This document shows positions 4,001 through 33,926 of a stretch of DNA of 64,000 bases, piece after piece. Numbering within the stretch: the first letter of the stretch is position 1; every line of letters begins with the position of its first letter. The DNA lies in UHGV virus genome UHGV-0141727; one strand, 5' to 3'. The translations under genes were made by a program, and so were the position numbers. The notes under the pieces are model-generated. The model worked only from the letters and a program-made list of their open reading frames with translations. It did not search any database and was not told the DNA's origin. The stretch comes from a virus.

Positions 4001-4999
4001 TCACATCCTCTTAGACACAAAGATCAGCGGAGTCACCGTCTTGTTCTCTTTCACCGGTATTTCTTGTTGTTTATTGGCTGATATTGGCAGACCATAAGTG
4101 GCATTAGCCCCTAGGGATTCAAGCATCGCTGCGACAATGCGTGCATCATCCTCTGACTGCATACGGCAGAGCGCCCGGCGCTGTTCTGCGCTGATAAAAA
4201 CAGGCATTTCCTGGATAGCATCACGCAAAATACGGCGGCATTTCTTCGCGTTCTCCCCCTGGCTTTCCATCATCGCGGCCTGGTCGCGTAGTTTGTCGCG
4301 AAGCTGCATATTTTCCACTTCAAGATGTATCAGTTCCGATTCCAGAGCTTCACGCTGTGCTGATTCAATCATTGCTTGTTGACTTTGCATTTGTGCAAAG
4401 TGATGAACAATATCTGTAGCCTGATTGTCAGTGAAACCTTGATCCATCAGCGACGTGTGCATAACAGCTTCACGCTCTTCAACGGACTCCATCATCGGTA
4501 TCTGTTTATCGAGGCTGATATAGTTCGGCACGGTAACGTAATCAAATCCATGAAAGGAGTTTACTATTGACACGAAAGAATCAGGTCCAATAGTCGCCCA
4601 TGACCAACCGCCAGCATTTGAGTTGATCAATCCTTGAACAATATGCCCTGTATATGAATCAAGAATTTCTTGGGTGTGCGTAATGACACCATTATCGTCA
4701 ATAGAAATATCAACTGTTCTGTTAGATGGCACATTTTCCAGAAGAAGAGGCTTACCATCCATCATAACAACGCAAACCTCTGGCAAATCTAGTGATTTAG
4801 TTTTGTTGTAATACATCGAGCGGCGACCATGACCGTAATATCCAAATAGCTCACCAAGAGCCATGCGCTCTTTAACTAGCGGTGATGTTATGGTTTTTCG
4901 CACAGCCTCAATAATGTATTTTCGGTTGTTCTGCGGTGTATGTTTGCGGATTTTCTCTACCAGGGAGAAGCGATCCGTAACGGTATTCAGTGATTGCAT
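4001..4999 (-). CDS. head morphogenesis protein (prohead protease/scaffold-like by size and position)
   Basis: ORF 332 aa immediately downstream of portal-size gene; coiled-coil C-terminal half. Confidence 0.3.
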   Translation of the reverse strand: MQSLNTVTDRFSLVEKIRKHTPQNNRKYIIEAVRKTITSPLVKERMALGELFGYYGHGRRSMYYNKTKSLDLPEVCVVMMDGKPLLLENVPSNRTVDISIDDNGVITHTQEILDSYTGHIVQGLINSNAGGWSWATIGPDSFVSIVNSFHGFDYVTVPNYISLDKQIPMMESVEEREAVMHTSLMDQGFTDNQATDIVHHFAQMQSQQAMIESAQREALESELIHLEVENMQLRDKLRDQAAMMESQGENAKKCRRILRDAIQEMPVFISAEQRRALCRMQSEDDARIVAAMLESLGANATYGLPISANKQQEIPVKENKTVTPLIFVSKRM

Positions 5000-18463: not shown

Positions 18464-19894
18464 TTACGGATAGGTTATGCTGAACGTTGATGATTCCACG
18501 TCCAGATAAACAAAATCATTAAAGTACACAGCTTCTTTCATGTTCTGCGTAGCCACGTCATAAGACAGGAACATATCCAGCGATTCGATTACTCGCCAGA
18601 TATCTTTTACTTTGACCTGTGCATAACATTGCTGTGAGTCGTCATCACTCTGCAATAGCTGGCTAAATGACATGGAGTCTTTACCGAAGTTCTCCTCCAG
18701 TGCCGCTTTAATTGCAGTTAGCGCGTCATCCACCAGCACACTCTTTTTTACGATACCGGTAAATTTGATGTTGAACGGCTGTTCATTGGTGGCGACGTAT
18801 TCGAACTTCTTATTCAGCTCATTAGGGATACTCTCAAGGGCTGATAATATCTCTGTTTTCAGAGCTTCCTGTGTTACGCCGGGCTTATGCCCACAAAAGA
18901 AAATTTTGTTGATATTACGCACATCAAAGCCCGTTATTTTCTCCTGTAGCGCCTCCCCCCACACGTTAAGCCATGACGTGCCACTGACCACGTTCTGAAT
19001 GAACTGGCGGTAATCACCGCCCCAAACAACCTGCTCATCGTAGGCCACATAATACTGCGCCCTGTTTCGGGTTTCCTCGGTAGTTTCCATGCCACCACCG
19101 CCAGAAATGATCGAATCGGTTTTTACTTCCAGTGATTCGACATACCCGGAGATGTTCCCTGCTGGTTCAAGTTTCTGGCCTTCAGCCAGCGTGTAATCAC
19201 CGAGGCTTGCCATAATATCAATGCGTACCTGACTCCCTGCCGCTGGCATCATCCCCATTGATCCATCACCGAAGCGCACGCCGATCTGTTCTGTCGGCTT
19301 ATAAACCAACACATAATGTTTACTGTTATCCCTGGACATGCGGAATAGGGGGTTATGTGTCCATTTTTCCTCGACACCATTAGTTATCACGACAACTTCC
19401 AGGCTGGCGACTTCTGCTGTTAACTCACGGGAAAGTAACAACGTCAGGAATGGTGTTTCTTGCACCACGTCGAACGTTATGCTGACTGCTTCATGCTGTT
19501 TTACTTCTATGCCGGATACTGTTTCACCAGCAGGGATAACAACACTACTGCTTGTTGCAATTGGTGTCTGGTCGCTTGTCAGTAATTCAGCCCCTCCGGG
19601 TAGCGTAATATCCCTGTCGGTTTTGTTGGTGATGGAAACAGTGCCGTATGACGCATCGACCAAACGACCGACATAGCCACGGTCTTCCGCTGCCGCGAGA
19701 ATACTTGCTCTGCGCGTCGCGGTGGAAATGAATCCTTCTGTAAGTGCACGGCTTGCAAATGTACGCGCAATATAAACAATCTGCGCGCCCAAAACGGACT
19801 GCATTTGAATAAACTGGCTGTTTACAAATCGCGCCCACCAGGGGTTTTCGTTCAGCTTGGCATTAAACTTGTCCAGTAATTCGGTAATACTCAC
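18464..19894 (-). CDS. baseplate J-like protein
   Basis: ORF 476 aa following W/gp25-like gene. Confidence 0.45.
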   Translation of the reverse strand: MSITELLDKFNAKLNENPWWARFVNSQFIQMQSVLGAQIVYIARTFASRALTEGFISTATRRASILAAAEDRGYVGRLVDASYGTVSITNKTDRDITLPGGAELLTSDQTPIATSSSVVIPAGETVSGIEVKQHEAVSITFDVVQETPFLTLLLSRELTAEVASLEVVVITNGVEEKWTHNPLFRMSRDNSKHYVLVYKPTEQIGVRFGDGSMGMMPAAGSQVRIDIMASLGDYTLAEGQKLEPAGNISGYVESLEVKTDSIISGGGGMETTEETRNRAQYYVAYDEQVVWGGDYRQFIQNVVSGTSWLNVWGEALQEKITGFDVRNINKIFFCGHKPGVTQEALKTEILSALESIPNELNKKFEYVATNEQPFNIKFTGIVKKSVLVDDALTAIKAALEENFGKDSMSFSQLLQSDDDSQQCYAQVKVKDIWRVIESLDMFLSYDVATQNMKEAVYFNDFVYLDVESSTFSITYP

Positions 19895-30087: not shown

Positions 30088-31743
30088 TCAACGCATCAGG
30101 ATTGGTTTGCCGAGGATTCGACGAGCAGTGCCTGTTGGACACACGGACCATTCCACTTCCCACAAGTCGATGTCTTTTTGAGTTACCTTGACCACATAAG
30201 GGTCAGAACCTTGAGATTCATCGCGTGGTGTAACCAGCGCACCAGCCGCATAAAAACGGTCCAGAAGATCTGTCAGTGCGTTAGTCAGACTTTCCTGCGT
30301 TACGCCATCAGGTTCATGCTTGATTGCCTGAGCAACTTCATAGAAATTGCGGGCAATTGCATTCATCAGTGATGAAACGTGCTGGAATCGCAGATAGTTA
30401 TTTTTGCTGTATGTCGTCAGGGAGTCGTCGATGTAGACAGAACCATCCGCTGCAACGCTTACTGGGTTAATACGAGCGGTCACATACGCTTCACGATCGA
30501 TTGTGCCAATCCCGGAGAGTCTGGTGATGTTCTGGCGATCAATGATTGCGCGAGACAGACCAGCCGGGGCGTAATGCCAGCCGCCTACATCAGACACAAG
30601 CGCAACGCCTTTAGCTTTTGCCACAAATGCGTCGCAACTGATTCCGTAAACCACATTCATACCGCTGAAAGTGTCACGGCATGAGTACGGGAAGTGATAA
30701 CGTGCAGCCTGGTGGGATTTGCCGAAACCATGTGATTTAGCTTCCGCGATAGCGTTATCACCAGTCTGAGCACATTTCAGGTCGTAGAACATATCCACGC
30801 GAACGTCTTCTGCCAGCGAATTAATTTTTGCCAGCACGGATGCGTCGTAGCAGCCCATAGAAAGCAGCGCGGTATAATTAACTTCTGACGCTTCGAGAAC
30901 CTCTAACGCTTTCAGATAATCATCAGTGTCAATTGAGGACAGATCGCCATCTGTACCGCCTTCAAACGCTACATCTTCGAAAGTCAGCAAGTGAGCGGAG
31001 TCTTCGGCACCATCAGCCAGTACAGCTCCAAGCCTGGTGGACTGACTTTCTAACAACGCAGGAATCCATGCTGGCTGGCCCATATCGTTCGTTGCATCCG
31101 GATCGAAAGAAACCTGGTAGCTTTCCAGCGTTTCTACAGAACCATCGGTCTGTGTCTCTTTCAGTTCCAGAGTGAACAGGTCATTTTCTTCGTCCTCACG
31201 GGTCAGTGATAACGTGCGGTTTGTCGAAGCATCACCGTCCTTTATGTAGAAAATAGCCAGTTCACTGCCGGAAATTTCAGGTGTTTCGCTTGCAGCGAAA
31301 GTTACCGGAGAAGTGGCTCCAGAAACGGCACGAACGGTCAGTGTATCGCCGATATTTACCGTTGCTTCGGTCGGAGCAATTTGCAGAGTTTTTGCTGACT
31401 TGGTGCTTTTCGACCTGGCCTGAACAGAAACGGCAATGCCCGGTACTTTCATGTCTTTTGCGCATACGCGAACCACATAACCGGTGCCGCCTTTTACTGC
31501 GCGTTCAACGTGGCGATATGGTTCAAATGCGGCCCCGGTGCGCGGGTGAAGAGGTGAACCTAACACGCTCTGATAGTTGGCTGCTGTAACCTGCAAAACC
31601 TTGCCTGGTGCCCCTCTGCGGGAAATAACCAACCCGGCAAAGACGGAAGCACCGCCAGATGTGTTGGACAGGGTAGCATCGGCATTTACGTCCGCTACCG
31701 CAACGCCCGCCGCCTGACCAACAGAAAAACCAATTTTATTCAT
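30088..31743 (-). CDS. major virion structural protein (sheath-size, P1 gp22-like position)
   Basis: ORF 551 aa adjacent to capsid-size gene; assignment by size and synteny. Confidence 0.35.
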   Translation of the reverse strand: MNKIGFSVGQAAGVAVADVNADATLSNTSGGASVFAGLVISRRGAPGKVLQVTAANYQSVLGSPLHPRTGAAFEPYRHVERAVKGGTGYVVRVCAKDMKVPGIAVSVQARSKSTKSAKTLQIAPTEATVNIGDTLTVRAVSGATSPVTFAASETPEISGSELAIFYIKDGDASTNRTLSLTREDEENDLFTLELKETQTDGSVETLESYQVSFDPDATNDMGQPAWIPALLESQSTRLGAVLADGAEDSAHLLTFEDVAFEGGTDGDLSSIDTDDYLKALEVLEASEVNYTALLSMGCYDASVLAKINSLAEDVRVDMFYDLKCAQTGDNAIAEAKSHGFGKSHQAARYHFPYSCRDTFSGMNVVYGISCDAFVAKAKGVALVSDVGGWHYAPAGLSRAIIDRQNITRLSGIGTIDREAYVTARINPVSVAADGSVYIDDSLTTYSKNNYLRFQHVSSLMNAIARNFYEVAQAIKHEPDGVTQESLTNALTDLLDRFYAAGALVTPRDESQGSDPYVVKVTQKDIDLWEVEWSVCPTGTARRILGKPILMR

Positions 31744-31778: not shown

Positions 31779-31804
31779 AGTCTCCCCATTTGCATGGGGA
31801 GACT
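31779..31804. terminator. perfect 11-bp stem hairpin AGTCTCCCCAT/ATGGGGAGACT between Ig-like ORF and next gene
   Basis: stem-loop with TTTTATC on plus side. Confidence 0.35.
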
Positions 31805-31808
31805 TTTA

Positions 31809-32087
31809 TCAGGCTTCGCCGACCGTGAAGCTGTCACCTACCGTCACTTCTTTGGTTGACGGTTCAACGCTGACGGCGCTTACGCTCTTTGGGGCTTCAT
31901 TAACCGTTACGGTGCATGTTGCCGTTTTATTGCCATCGGTGGTTTTGATAGTGAGCACTGCCTGACCTGCTTTAAGTGCGGTACAGGTTTTGCCATCTAC
32001 GCTCACAATTTCCGGATGATCTGACTCGATAGTGAAAGATTTATCTGTCGCATCGGAAGGTGTAATAGTTACCTGAATATCAGCCAT
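31809..32087 (-). CDS. Ig-like (Big_2-type) domain protein fragment
   Basis: ORF 31809..32099; second ATG at 32087 has GGAGG RBS; contains the distal two-thirds of one Big_2-like domain and the start of a second. Confidence 0.45.
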   Translation of the reverse strand: MADIQVTITPSDATDKSFTIESDHPEIVSVDGKTCTALKAGQAVLTIKTTDGNKTATCTVTVNEAPKSVSAVSVEPSTKEVTVGDSFTVGEA

Positions 32088-32124
32088 TTTTTCCTCCATA
32101 TAGCCCCTTATTCAGGGGCTGGTC

Positions 32125-32240
32125 TTACTTCTTTTTGGGTGTTTTTCGTGTCTTTGAAGTGCTCGCGGCGATAGTTTCACCTTCGTTTACTTCAATTGCC
32201 GTTGGTGAAACTGACACGTTCGCCACTGCTACTTTTTTTC
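32125..32240 (-). other. candidate programmed -1 frameshift site (A AAA AAG at 32232-32238) and 35-codon extension carrying the start of an Ig-like domain
   Basis: slippery heptamer overlaps the stop codon of the 565-aa gene; 9-bp stem 32173-32181/32203-32211 downstream; -1 frame reads VAVANVSVSPTAIEVNEGET... Confidence 0.4.
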
Positions 32241-33926
32241 GTTGATTTGCCCGCTCAACATGTCAATCGCACCTTCTTTCGAACGTGTCAGGCGAAGGCG
32301 AGTGAAATAGTTCTCACCGTTGCGCGGATGCACATCGTTGATTGCTTTGCCCCAAAAAGTGGTGCGGTTCACTAGGGCTGGATTTGTTTCGTGGACATAC
32401 GGAATAGCAGGCACAGCATCACCTGCGACCAGGCCTGCTTTACCAATGCCTTCGCCACGACCATAGAAATAGATGTCGTCCAGGCCGAAGTCGTAGCCAT
32501 ATTTCTGGAATTGTTTGCAGATAGGCTTCGGCACTTCGTAGATACGAATGGAACCAAACAGGGTGCCGATGTATTGAATGTACGGCGACTGTACATAGCC
32601 CGGTGCCAACTGGAAGTGCTGCGGCGGTAAGGAACGCAGGAAGTTAGCAGCATCGCCACCAGCAAAGCCACCACGGATACCGGTGGTCAGGGTGCGGTCA
32701 GCCATCTCCTGTGACAGCGCGTTCACAACATGGCGAATTAAACCAACCCACGACTCGTAGTTCTGCGCTTCTGGCAGTGCCACATCAAATTCACGACCGT
32801 AAACGGTGTGGAATACCAGAGTGCGCAGGCGCATCATATCGATTTCGTGGGAAATCCAGTTGCGCATTGCAGAGAATTGCAATGCTGCCAGTTCGAGTCC
32901 GTGTTCACGGCTCAGGTCAGATGCAGCCATAACCGTATGTTCGGATGCGATCACGTACTCCGACGGGCGCAGGGCGTAATTGCGCATGGACTGGTTAATG
33001 ACTGGTATCAGGTTCGGATTGCGTTCAATGTTGATTTCAACCTGAACAGCGATTTCAGTGCCTTCTGCTGGTGCTTCATTAAAGGTGATATCGATAACGC
33101 CGGTATCGTATCGAACCTTTGCCGTCACAGAGAAAGAGTTGCCGTTGACGTCTTTGTCGTTGAAATACAGGTTGCCGTCACCATCATCTACTTTGGACGG
33201 TTTGCGGTTAATCAGCAGTTTGTTGTAGCCCTGGCGCAGCGGGCAGGCCTGGCCTTCGAAGTTCTGGATATCAAACTGGAAGGTGGTTTTTCTGCCATCG
33301 CCTTTTTCGGTCAGGATGTACAGGCGTTTCATCTGCGAATACACGCCAGCAGACTGCATGTTCAGTTCATCGCCCTGCTCGAATGTACCGAATTTTGTAC
33401 CAGCAACGTTGGTCAGCTCGTAAATATTGGTTTCATCACGATCACAAGGGATAAACGTACATGCGTCGCTGGTGGCTGCGCCGAGAGAAGCAGGCAGGAT
33501 CAGTGCGGCATATTGTGCAACCTTCATTACACCATCGGAGGTGCGCATGTCCTTGGCTACTGATTCAAACATGGCTTTGCCAGCGCCTTCATGCGTCTCT
33601 TTAGCGGACTCCATCATCAGGCGCTCAAGTGCCACATGGGCGTTGGCTAATACATCGCTTGCCGGATAATGCCCATACTGGCGTTTGTATTCATGAATAG
33701 ACATGGCCCAGCTACCAATGATCTGGCGAGCTGCTTCTGGTTCAACGCCTTCAAACATAGGCTCTTTCTGGATAGCTTTTTCCAGGTTAGCCATCATCAC
33801 TTCGTTGTCGGCAATCATGTTACCGGCAGCATCAGTGGTTGGATCGACGGTCATAGCCATGACGCTTGCCGCCCGATTCATAATCTCGCGCTCGCGCTTA
33901 CGAGCTGGCTCAATGTTCTTGTTCAC
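32229..33926 (-). CDS. major capsid-size structural protein (P1 gp23-like position)
   Basis: ORF 565 aa; ends GAA AAA AAG TAG; Ig-like domain sequence downstream. Confidence 0.4.
   Translation of the reverse strand: MNKNIEPARKREREIMNRAASVMAMTVDPTTDAAGNMIADNEVMMANLEKAIQKEPMFEGVEPEAARQIIGSWAMSIHEYKRQYGHYPASDVLANAHVALERLMMESAKETHEGAGKAMFESVAKDMRTSDGVMKVAQYAALILPASLGAATSDACTFIPCDRDETNIYELTNVAGTKFGTFEQGDELNMQSAGVYSQMKRLYILTEKGDGRKTTFQFDIQNFEGQACPLRQGYNKLLINRKPSKVDDGDGNLYFNDKDVNGNSFSVTAKVRYDTGVIDITFNEAPAEGTEIAVQVEINIERNPNLIPVINQSMRNYALRPSEYVIASEHTVMAASDLSREHGLELAALQFSAMRNWISHEIDMMRLRTLVFHTVYGREFDVALPEAQNYESWVGLIRHVVNALSQEMADRTLTTGIRGGFAGGDAANFLRSLPPQHFQLAPGYVQSPYIQYIGTLFGSIRIYEVPKPICKQFQKYGYDFGLDDIYFYGRGEGIGKAGLVAGDAVPAIPYVHETNPALVNRTTFWGKAINDVHPRNGENYFTRLRLTRSKEGAIDMLSGQINEKK

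Follow-up and report, generated by a model that had tools for sequence, protein, structure and literature searches.

The virus genome UHGV-0141727, analysed here as a stretch of 64,000 nucleotides (the window), carries two short coding segments between its major capsid protein gene and its tail sheath gene. Together they cover one immunoglobulin-like (Ig-like) domain of the Pfam family Big_2. One is read in the -1 frame past the last codons of the capsid gene, the other belongs to a separate gene encoding 92 amino acids. All elements of the locus are located on the minus strand and their coordinates are collected in Table 1. Over 4 kb the region shares 76.7% nucleotide identity with Escherichia phage D6, and the window is a D6-like phage-plasmid of the P1 family. 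In the annotation of D6, orf51 encodes the major capsid protein (similar to P1 gene 23), orf50 a hypothetical protein and orf49 a 'structural protein with Ig domain', followed by the tail sheath gene (similar to P1 gene 22); this layout is identical to that of the window. The order of capsid and sheath genes and the capsid processing site are common to the window, D6 and P1. In P1, however, gene 23 is directly followed by gene 22 and there is no Ig module. Decoration proteins are apparently lacking from the P1 virion proteome (PMC9024508). The region is carried by about 130 PLSDB plasmids, mainly from Escherichia and Salmonella. RefSeq plasmids that contain it have no frameshift annotated, and D6 orf50 is annotated as a gene of its own with no frameshift noted.

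The capsid gene end and a Big_2 domain in two pieces

The capsid gene ends with GAA AAA AAG TAG, and A AAA AAG thus occupies its last codons in the phase required for tandem -1 slippage. An earlier reading of the window, made from the letters alone (the sequence-only reading), had pointed to this heptamer, to a 9-bp stem about 20 nt downstream and to a 35-codon extension in the -1 frame, and all three are present. In the long frames of the window, which comprise 19,418 codons, A AAA AAG occurs in phase twice. The heptamer is the frameshift site of E. coli dnaX, where it is accompanied by an upstream Shine-Dalgarno-like element and a downstream stem-loop. Heptamer and phase are the same in the capsid gene, and a predicted stem-loop begins 5 nt downstream; in contrast to dnaX, where the shift shortens the product, a shift at the capsid gene would lengthen it.

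RNAfold predicts a structure of two helices 3' of the heptamer. The outer helix of 7 bp (GUGGCGA/UCGCCGC, 32220-32226 pairing with 32165-32171) starts 5 nt past the heptamer. The inner helix of 9 bp (AGUUUCACC/GGUGAAACU, 32204-32212 pairing with 32173-32181) starts 20 nt past it and is the stem that had been noticed before. The predicted energy is -25.3 kcal/mol, compared with -16.5 ± 2.7 kcal/mol for shuffled sequences (z = -3.3), and one of 200 shuffles was equally stable. Among variants of the D6 group the outer helix is unvarying and the inner helix is retained in part, while an Enterobacter lineage described below has a different hairpin, 9 nt past the heptamer (z = -2.05). The structure probably aids slippage. 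Across the junction a shifted ribosome would read ...INEKK/VAVANV...; the tryptic peptide predicted for the extended form is VAVANVSVSPTAIEVNEGETIAASTSK (D6 equivalent VMVANVSVSPTSLDVDEGETIAANTSK).

Table 1. Coordinates of the capsid-to-sheath locus in the window
Feature	Position	Strand	Basis
Major capsid protein gene, 565 aa, homologue of P1 gene 23 / D6 orf51	32229..33926	-	ORF list, D6 annotation
Candidate maturation cleavage E121/S122, motif FE/SVAKDM	33561-33566	-	alignment
Slippery heptamer A AAA AAG, in phase (0-frame codons GAA AAA AAG)	32232-32238	-	sequence
Capsid stop TAG, directly after the heptamer	32229-32231	-	sequence
Predicted two-helix RNA structure	32161..32229	-	RNAfold
-1 frame extension, 35 codons, VAVANVSVSPTAIEVNEGETIAASTSKTRKTPKKK and stop	32128..32232	-	translation
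Extension stop TAA	32125-32127	-	translation
GC-rich hairpin AGCCCCU-GAAUA-AGGGGCU, between extension stop and Ig gene	32102..32120	-	sequence
Shine-Dalgarno GGAGG of the Ig gene	32093-32097	-	sequence; 5-nt spacer to ATG
ATG of the Ig gene	32085-32087	-	sequence; D6-group proteins begin there as MANIQVT... or MADIQVT...
Ig-like protein gene, 92 aa, frame 0 relative to the capsid gene	31809..32087	-	ORF, Pfam Big_2
Acceptor, residues 1-64, Big_2 strands B-G	31896-32087	-	Pfam Big_2
Donor 2, residues 65-92 (APKSVSAVSVEPSTKEVTVGDSFTVGEA), second A/A'/half-B segment	31812-31895	-	donor HMM
Second hairpin AGUCUCCCCAU-GCAA-AUGGGGAGACU, between Ig gene and tail sheath gene	31779..31804	-	sequence
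Tail sheath gene, P1 gene 22 homologue	30088..31743	-	D6 annotation, sheath alignment

Codons 1-24 of the extension (VAVANVSVSPTAIEVNEGETIAAS, donor 1) correspond to strands A, A' and the start of strand B of a Big_2 domain. Codons 25-35 form a Lys-rich tail, and past the start of strand B the extension contains nothing else. The remainder of the domain lies beyond the extension stop, a hairpin, a GGAGG and an ATG, in the 92-aa open reading frame (ORF). Pfam Big_2 (PF02368) matches this ORF with 29.9 bits (gathering cut-off 22.8, E = 5e-7), from position 22 to position 79 of the 79 in the hidden Markov model (HMM). Because the match begins at position 22, the first Big_2 strands are missing from the ORF. 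When the first 20 residues of the extension were joined to the ORF body, positions 1-22 were added: coverage extended over positions 1-79 and the score was 39.4 bits, compared with 30.8 bits for the body alone (23-79). In both other lineages with a divided domain, donor and body together likewise outscore the body (24.6 to 27.2 and 29.3 to 35.2 bits). No single polypeptide of the locus holds the full domain, and positions 1-79 are reached by extension and body in combination. A Big_2 first strand in the extension, with the rest of the domain in the downstream ORF, is what the sequence-only reading had described.

That reading also had the ORF ending inside a second Ig-like domain, in agreement with the profile results. 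A donor HMM was built from the corresponding segments of relatives, the window being left out, and scored against 1,460 six-frame segments. It recovered the extension (E = 4e-12) and the last 28 residues of the ORF (E = 8e-11). In giant tandem Big_2 proteins the ORF profile runs unbroken across the domain boundary (about positions 5-90). Hence the ORF is a phase-shifted unit, made up of strands B to G from one domain and, from the next, strands A and A' with half of B. Among the 150 matches listed by a profile search with the 92-aa family, all of them giant tandem Big_2 proteins, there was no other small permuted protein.

AlphaFold2, run with a shallow alignment, models the 92-aa protein as an Ig body with block-mean predicted local distance difference test (pLDDT) values of 76-87 over residues 11-60. 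Residues 67-92 have pLDDT values below 50 and are not packed against the body. The best Foldseek match of the body is the Big_2 domain 7quz (root mean square deviation 1.3 Å over 66 columns), and the Ig domain of lambda gpV also matches. The linker between strand G and the next strand A is only 4-7 residues long (APKS...). The ends of an Ig sandwich lie about its full length apart; judged from this general knowledge of the fold, the linker leaves too little length for the tail to fold back onto the domain it belongs to, and the tail consequently looks like a free arm.

Substitution rates at nonsynonymous (dN) and synonymous (dS) sites were compared between the window and D6. For the capsid gene dN is 0.077 and dS 1.84, for the Ig gene 0.076 and 1.47 (dN/dS about 0.05), and for neighbouring genes dS is 1.3-1.8. 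With such values for the capsid and Ig genes, silent sites are saturated between the two genomes. In spite of this, the extension has kept 81% nucleotide identity (dN of 0.175 and dS of 0.37, with changes spread over codon positions as 7/4/9), and just past it identity falls to 57%. Since the silent sites of its neighbours are saturated, the extension is constrained, partly as protein and probably partly as RNA. Within the window and D6 groups it occurs as four protein variants of 35 residues. A fifth variant, in the IMG/VR locus L024, has a one-base length change in an A-run of the Lys-rich tail, which gives an altered, longer end (...AQKKQSRSKAKTRP and stop) and leaves the strand part untouched. 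Either the tail tolerates such changes or the homopolymer was misread in sequencing.

The divided domain among related loci

A set of 113 related loci was gathered by capsid-protein similarity; it draws on annotated records of plasmids and phages, on a single genome for each species, on IMG/VR and on metagenomes. The loci were sorted by the stretch from the capsid C-terminus to the start of the sheath gene. Five layouts (A-E) were distinguished. Layout A, with the arrangement of the window, comprises the window group and the D6 group, whose capsid proteins are 97% and 87% identical to that of the window. Here the heptamer is invariant while the 0-frame stop alternates between TAG, TGA and TAA.

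Layout B is found in an Enterobacter group (L003, L033 and L084, the last a duplicate of L033), with capsid proteins 78% identical to that of the window. The 0-frame capsid tail is unrelated and 15 residues longer (...QINSSASNPGETTDEEEKKSE and stop), and the heptamer is placed two codons ahead of the stop. In the -1 frame, VGVTGVSVSSDGQELSEGDSFAIE and a stop are read, and the five-codon distance from the heptamer to 'VSV' is kept. The -1 frame is conserved across the insertions and deletions that shift the 0-frame stop, which favours a frameshift. The extension of layout B contains no ATG, GTG or TTG and hence could be reached only by frameshifting. It is followed by a hairpin, a ribosome-binding site and a truncated Ig gene of 92 aa that ends with VEGVSVDSEKQDATVGDTFTVGE and a stop.

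In layout C, a metagenomic group (L031, L032 and L085, the last a duplicate of L032; capsid proteins 71-72% identical to that of the window), the heptamer is absent and every capsid protein carries the A/A' segment in frame (...GQVNGTSGTVVEGVTLSPASITVSAGDEITAGNTKKDS and stop). A hairpin and a ribosome-binding site again precede a truncated Ig gene that has remained separate, and this gene too ends in an A/A' segment. The in-frame position of the first segment in these loci shows that it belongs covalently on the capsid protein. Moreover, as the segment is fused in frame and the Ig gene is yet separate, the division persists with or without the need of a frameshift. Layout D, of Serratia and Erwinia (capsid identity 45-53%), has a complete Big_2 domain fused in frame (L002, L009, L010 and L060-62; L011), and layout E, of Pantoea, Citrobacter, Xenorhabdus and others, has no Ig domain.

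Across this census, whose loci are not independent of each other, the heptamer is retained in 44/44 loci with the first segment in the -1 frame and in 0/3 with the segment in frame 0. This distribution favours frameshifting, as the outcome of the check on heptamer-lacking relatives that the sequence-only reading had suggested. Loci with donor and no acceptor, or the reverse, numbered zero. In all three lineages of layouts A, B and C the break points are the same: both donors end, and the body begins, at one domain position. Between these lineages, in which the extension can no longer be aligned as DNA, the Ig bodies are 42-58% identical and the strand segments about 30-40%. The extensions preserve the A/A' pattern of Big_2 with 7-10 of 24 identical residues, similar to the C-terminal segments (8-13 of 24) and little below the Ig body. 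The shift signal, the two-piece domain and their joint conservation can be read directly from the sequences and their comparison. As A, B and C are each other's closest relatives, the division most likely arose once. A comparison of donor 1 with donor 2 gave no clear signal of the co-variation within lineages that adaptation of both to one groove should produce (8-11 of 24 residues identical within lineages, and similarly between them). The metagenome scan revealed no further lineage with a divided domain, and a word-based protein search gave matches only among close relatives of the D6 group.

Several single loci deserve mention. The metagenome contigs L069 (SKEN01000208.1) and L070 (PPYF01653838.1) encode a capsid protein 100% identical to that of the window, which probably derives from this Escherichia phage-plasmid population. 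In the Serratia-type loci L009, L060, L061 and L062 an in-phase A AAA AAG (...FIEKK..., around position 4155 of each locus) lies upstream of the complete in-frame Big_2 domain; there a -1 shift would end after about one codon and yield a capsid protein without Ig, a reverse logic resembling that of dnaX. This heptamer is absent from L002 and L010. In the metagenome contig Ga0157364_1030525 (L099) the capsid protein ends with ...AAATGK and a stop, and the -1 frame goes on for about 75 codons rich in Ala, Lys, Asp and Gln, which resemble the in-frame acidic, Ala-rich tails of L057, L067 and L096. L099 could represent another recoded capsid extension or an assembly indel.

Possible docking of the Ig-like protein to the capsid

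Taken together, the sequence data make it highly probable that ribosomes undergo a -1 frameshift where the capsid gene ends. Most ribosomes would halt at the TAG and release the ordinary capsid protein. A minority would slip back by one base on A AAA AAG, with probable assistance from the RNA structure 5 nt downstream, and append 35 residues (about 3.6 kDa, to a mature capsid protein of roughly 49.5 kDa), of which roughly the first 24 would supply Big_2 strands A, A' and the start of B. The capsid gene would then have a second product, and neither D6 orf50 nor its counterparts are likely to be genes in their own right. From its own ribosome-binding site the next gene would give a 9.4-kDa Big_2 protein of 92 aa without strands A and A'. 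We propose that donor-strand or fragment complementation takes place in trans, with the capsid tail slotting into this incomplete Ig domain. Only frameshifted capsid subunits would then tether the Ig protein, and the frameshift rate would set the number of copies per head. The C-terminal A/A' arm of the Ig protein could in turn feed the next copy, giving rise to short head-to-tail Ig chains. In lineages A and B the number of anchor points would be limited by the frameshift, while in lineage C every subunit would be an anchor.

The steps of this proposal differ in strength. Complementation of the strand-deficient Ig protein by the frameshifted capsid tail has, in our estimate, about an even chance; HMM coverage and a body modelled without strand A fit an Ig-like body that is short of an edge strand, with the donor on another chain. 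We are more doubtful of the full scheme, in which a frameshift-rationed docking system captures copies that recruit more, chains growing from the head, and we put it forward tentatively. A useful rate of frameshifting, assembly of the pieces and formation of chains are what we infer from the arrangement. Conserved as it is in relatives, the two-piece layout looks like a working docking system and not like a broken gene.

C-terminal Ig-like domains appended by frameshifting are well known on capsid and tail proteins of phages, for example from the capsid protein 10B of T3, from Lactobacillus phage A2 and from the Listeria phages A118 and A500 (-1) and PSA (+1), and the same Ig module is known to be in frame or out of frame among related phages (PMC5009743), as it is in the loci compared here. 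As in these phages, an Ig-related extension would be added to a minority of capsid subunits by a frameshift near the end of the gene. The sequence-only reading had proposed exactly such an appended Ig decoration, and the heptamer and the Big_2 strands in the -1 frame uphold it to that extent. No whole domain is added, however: before the stop the extension provides the A/A' segment, about 22 domain residues, and the Lys-rich tail, and the other five or six strands are encoded by a separate gene with its own ribosome-binding site. What is new here is that a single domain is shared out between the recoded tail of a capsid protein and a gene of its own and has stayed divided, whereas the known cases append the whole domain. 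Literature searches, which did not take in the D6 genome paper, returned no description of a capsid decoration by a split Ig domain or by donor strands.

Strand exchange in Ig-like folds occurs in chaperone-usher pilins and in the EC1 domain of cadherins, and SpyTag/SpyCatcher is an engineered split Ig-like domain. The likeness to pilins and to EC1 consists in an Ig-like fold short of an edge strand that another polypeptide supplies; a subunit with both acceptor and donor arm can polymerise head to tail, as the 92-aa protein hypothetically might. In pilins the missing strand is the C-terminal G strand, the donor is N-terminal, and a chaperone and an usher take part. Here the N-terminal strands A and A' are missing, the donor is C-terminal, neither chaperone nor usher is present, and the locus is a cytoplasmic phage head-tail module, distinct from the periplasmic chaperone/usher type with its missing G strand. 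Pilus donor-strand complementation, cadherin A-strand swapping and SpyTag/SpyCatcher are accordingly mechanistic analogues and no homologues.

A number of observations weigh against the docking proposal or the frameshift on which it builds. Within the D6 group dN/dS of the extension is about 0.47, which indicates modest protein constraint, so that its conservation may be partly at the RNA level. The Lys-rich tail is present in two of the three split lineages and is not kept in Enterobacter. The capsid stop of D6 overlaps an ATG (TGATG), and that of the window is followed by a GTG at a distance of 5 nt; a separate small peptide is possible in both. Unlike dnaX, the site has no convincing Shine-Dalgarno-like element upstream: inspection of the window, D6 and Enterobacter revealed no conserved AGGAGG-like element 6-14 nt ahead of the heptamer. 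The RNA folds are weaker in D6 (z = -1.9) and in Enterobacter, and among the D6-group variants no compensatory base changes occur, which makes the RNA structure only suggestive. About 4-5 residues of strand B are present both in the donors and in the body, so that any complementation could take more than one register. Finally, as the divided domain is confined to one clade, the support it lends is that of conservation and not of repeated origin.

Among the alternatives, the frameshift might be real and the complementation not. The extension would then act in another way, its Lys-rich tail or a short beta-hairpin stabilising the capsid surface, and the Ig protein would be independent. This we consider unlikely, although the dN/dS value of the extension and the Lys-rich tails of two lineages are in its favour, and T4 Hoc and T5 pb10 bind the capsid by parts of their own. 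Those two proteins have complete Ig domains and a dedicated capsid-binding part. The 92-aa protein resembles them as a small, probably non-essential Ig-like protein that may be displayed on the head, yet it has neither: it consists of a truncated Big_2 body and a donor-like tail and nothing else. The conserved part of the extension is exactly what this body lacks, with the same break points in three lineages. In addition, donor and acceptor are always found together, and the Lys-rich tail is absent from Enterobacter.

Improbable, in our view, is a self-contained circular permutant, in which the 92-aa protein is completed by its own C-terminal A/A' segment, within one chain or in a reciprocally swapped dimer, and the extension is no partner. 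A tandem array that was duplicated and truncated would be expected to leave strands in the order B to G, then A and A', and joining the ORF's own tail to the body restores HMM positions 2-79. However, the linker of about 4-7 residues would have to span an Ig sandwich whose ends are a full length apart, and AlphaFold2 leaves the low-confidence tail undocked. A permutant would also leave unexplained the paralogous segment on the capsid protein, whose end point is identical in all three lineages.

The domain could also be a decayed remnant, a continuous appended Ig domain broken by a stop, a hairpin and a ribosome-binding site, in which case the extension would be a stub and the ORF a fragment expressed by accident or being lost. 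The sequence-only reading had taken the appended domain to have been interrupted since. The distant Serratia and Erwinia relatives indeed have an intact in-frame Big_2 domain, and the split form plausibly derives from an intact domain or a tandem array. Decay is nevertheless quite improbable, and the notion of a domain broken recently or decaying does not hold, since the division is old and has been maintained in three groups at identical break points. Both pieces are open and patterned down to 72% capsid identity and across saturated synonymous sites. The ORF body evolves under the low dN/dS given above, the heptamer is present wherever the first segment lies in the -1 frame, the extension has retained its identity to D6 where neutral sequence should be near saturation, and no locus was seen with one piece lost.

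It is highly improbable, moreover, that no ribosomal frameshift takes place, the 35-codon frame being instead translated by reinitiation (as D6 orf50), reached by RNA polymerase slippage on the seven A residues, or not expressed. Besides the start codons of D6 and the window named above, L026 has TAATG at the capsid stop, and a run of seven A can permit some transcriptional slippage, which would lead to the same protein. Such a run is short for efficient polymerase slippage, however, and reinitiation is at odds with the Enterobacter extension, which has no start codon, and with L031, in which the segment is covalently in frame; a free peptide of 34 aa would also be unanchored. Bypassing as in T4 gene 60, with take-off at the last AAG of the extension, a skip of 37 nt including stop and hairpin, and landing on an AAA before the ATG to give an extension-Ig fusion, has next to no probability and was rejected: although the window and D6 have a Lys codon in the ORF frame 1-2 codons before the ATG, beside the GGAGG, and GAA/GAG could match in Enterobacter, the last codon of the extension segment in L031 is Ser with no Ser codon between hairpin and ATG, A-rich spacers beside a Shine-Dalgarno sequence make matches likely by chance, the take-off codon lies outside the hairpin, and a good ribosome-binding site already serves the ORF.

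If the two pieces do assemble, the docking system would be a new way to attach a capsid decoration, with a copy number set by ribosomal slippage, and a natural example of protein-fragment complementation. Phage-plasmids of the P1/D6 type, which are frequent among isolates of Escherichia and Salmonella, many of human or animal origin, would then also have a ready-made handle of small genetic size for display or tagging. If chains form, they would parallel, in a phage, the donor-strand polymerisation of pili and SpyTag/SpyCatcher.

Other features of the locus

The other in-phase A AAA AAG of the window is located at 18743-18749 (minus strand), within a 476-aa baseplate-like ORF (18464..19894; ...GIVKKSV...). 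By eye, the -1 frame closes there after about five codons, and this copy is probably due to chance.

A GC-rich hairpin stands right after the capsid cistron in all lineages inspected (D6, Enterobacter, Serratia, Pantoea and L031), whether or not an Ig module follows; in D6, A-U pairs at the stem base are replaced by C-G. The second hairpin, after the Ig gene, is found in the split-Ig lineages. A terminator scan did not call either hairpin as an intrinsic terminator on the coding strand, and no T-run is present. Both may be attenuators or mRNA-stabilising elements and not full terminators.

The tail sheath protein of the window has an insertion of 25-35 aa at residues 118-152 (31288-31392, minus strand; KTLQIAPTEATVNIGDTLTVRAVSGATSPVTFAAS), which is shared by D6, L028 and L031 and is thus confined to part of the split-Ig lineages. 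In the sheath alignment Enterobacter L003 has no more than a short insert, and the insertion is absent from the sheaths of Pantoea, Serratia, Erwinia and Xenorhabdus. By eye the insertion resembles Big_2 strands A, A', B and C, and it is the best match of the donor HMM in the window besides the two A/A' segments. With E = 0.7 and no Pfam Big_2 match it was rejected as a third donor.

P1 gp23 is cleaved during maturation at E120/S121 (SVAAEM; PMC9024508). In an alignment with five diverged relatives, E121 and S122 of the capsid protein of the window are invariant. To judge from this correspondence, the N-terminal ~121 residues are probably removed, as in P1.

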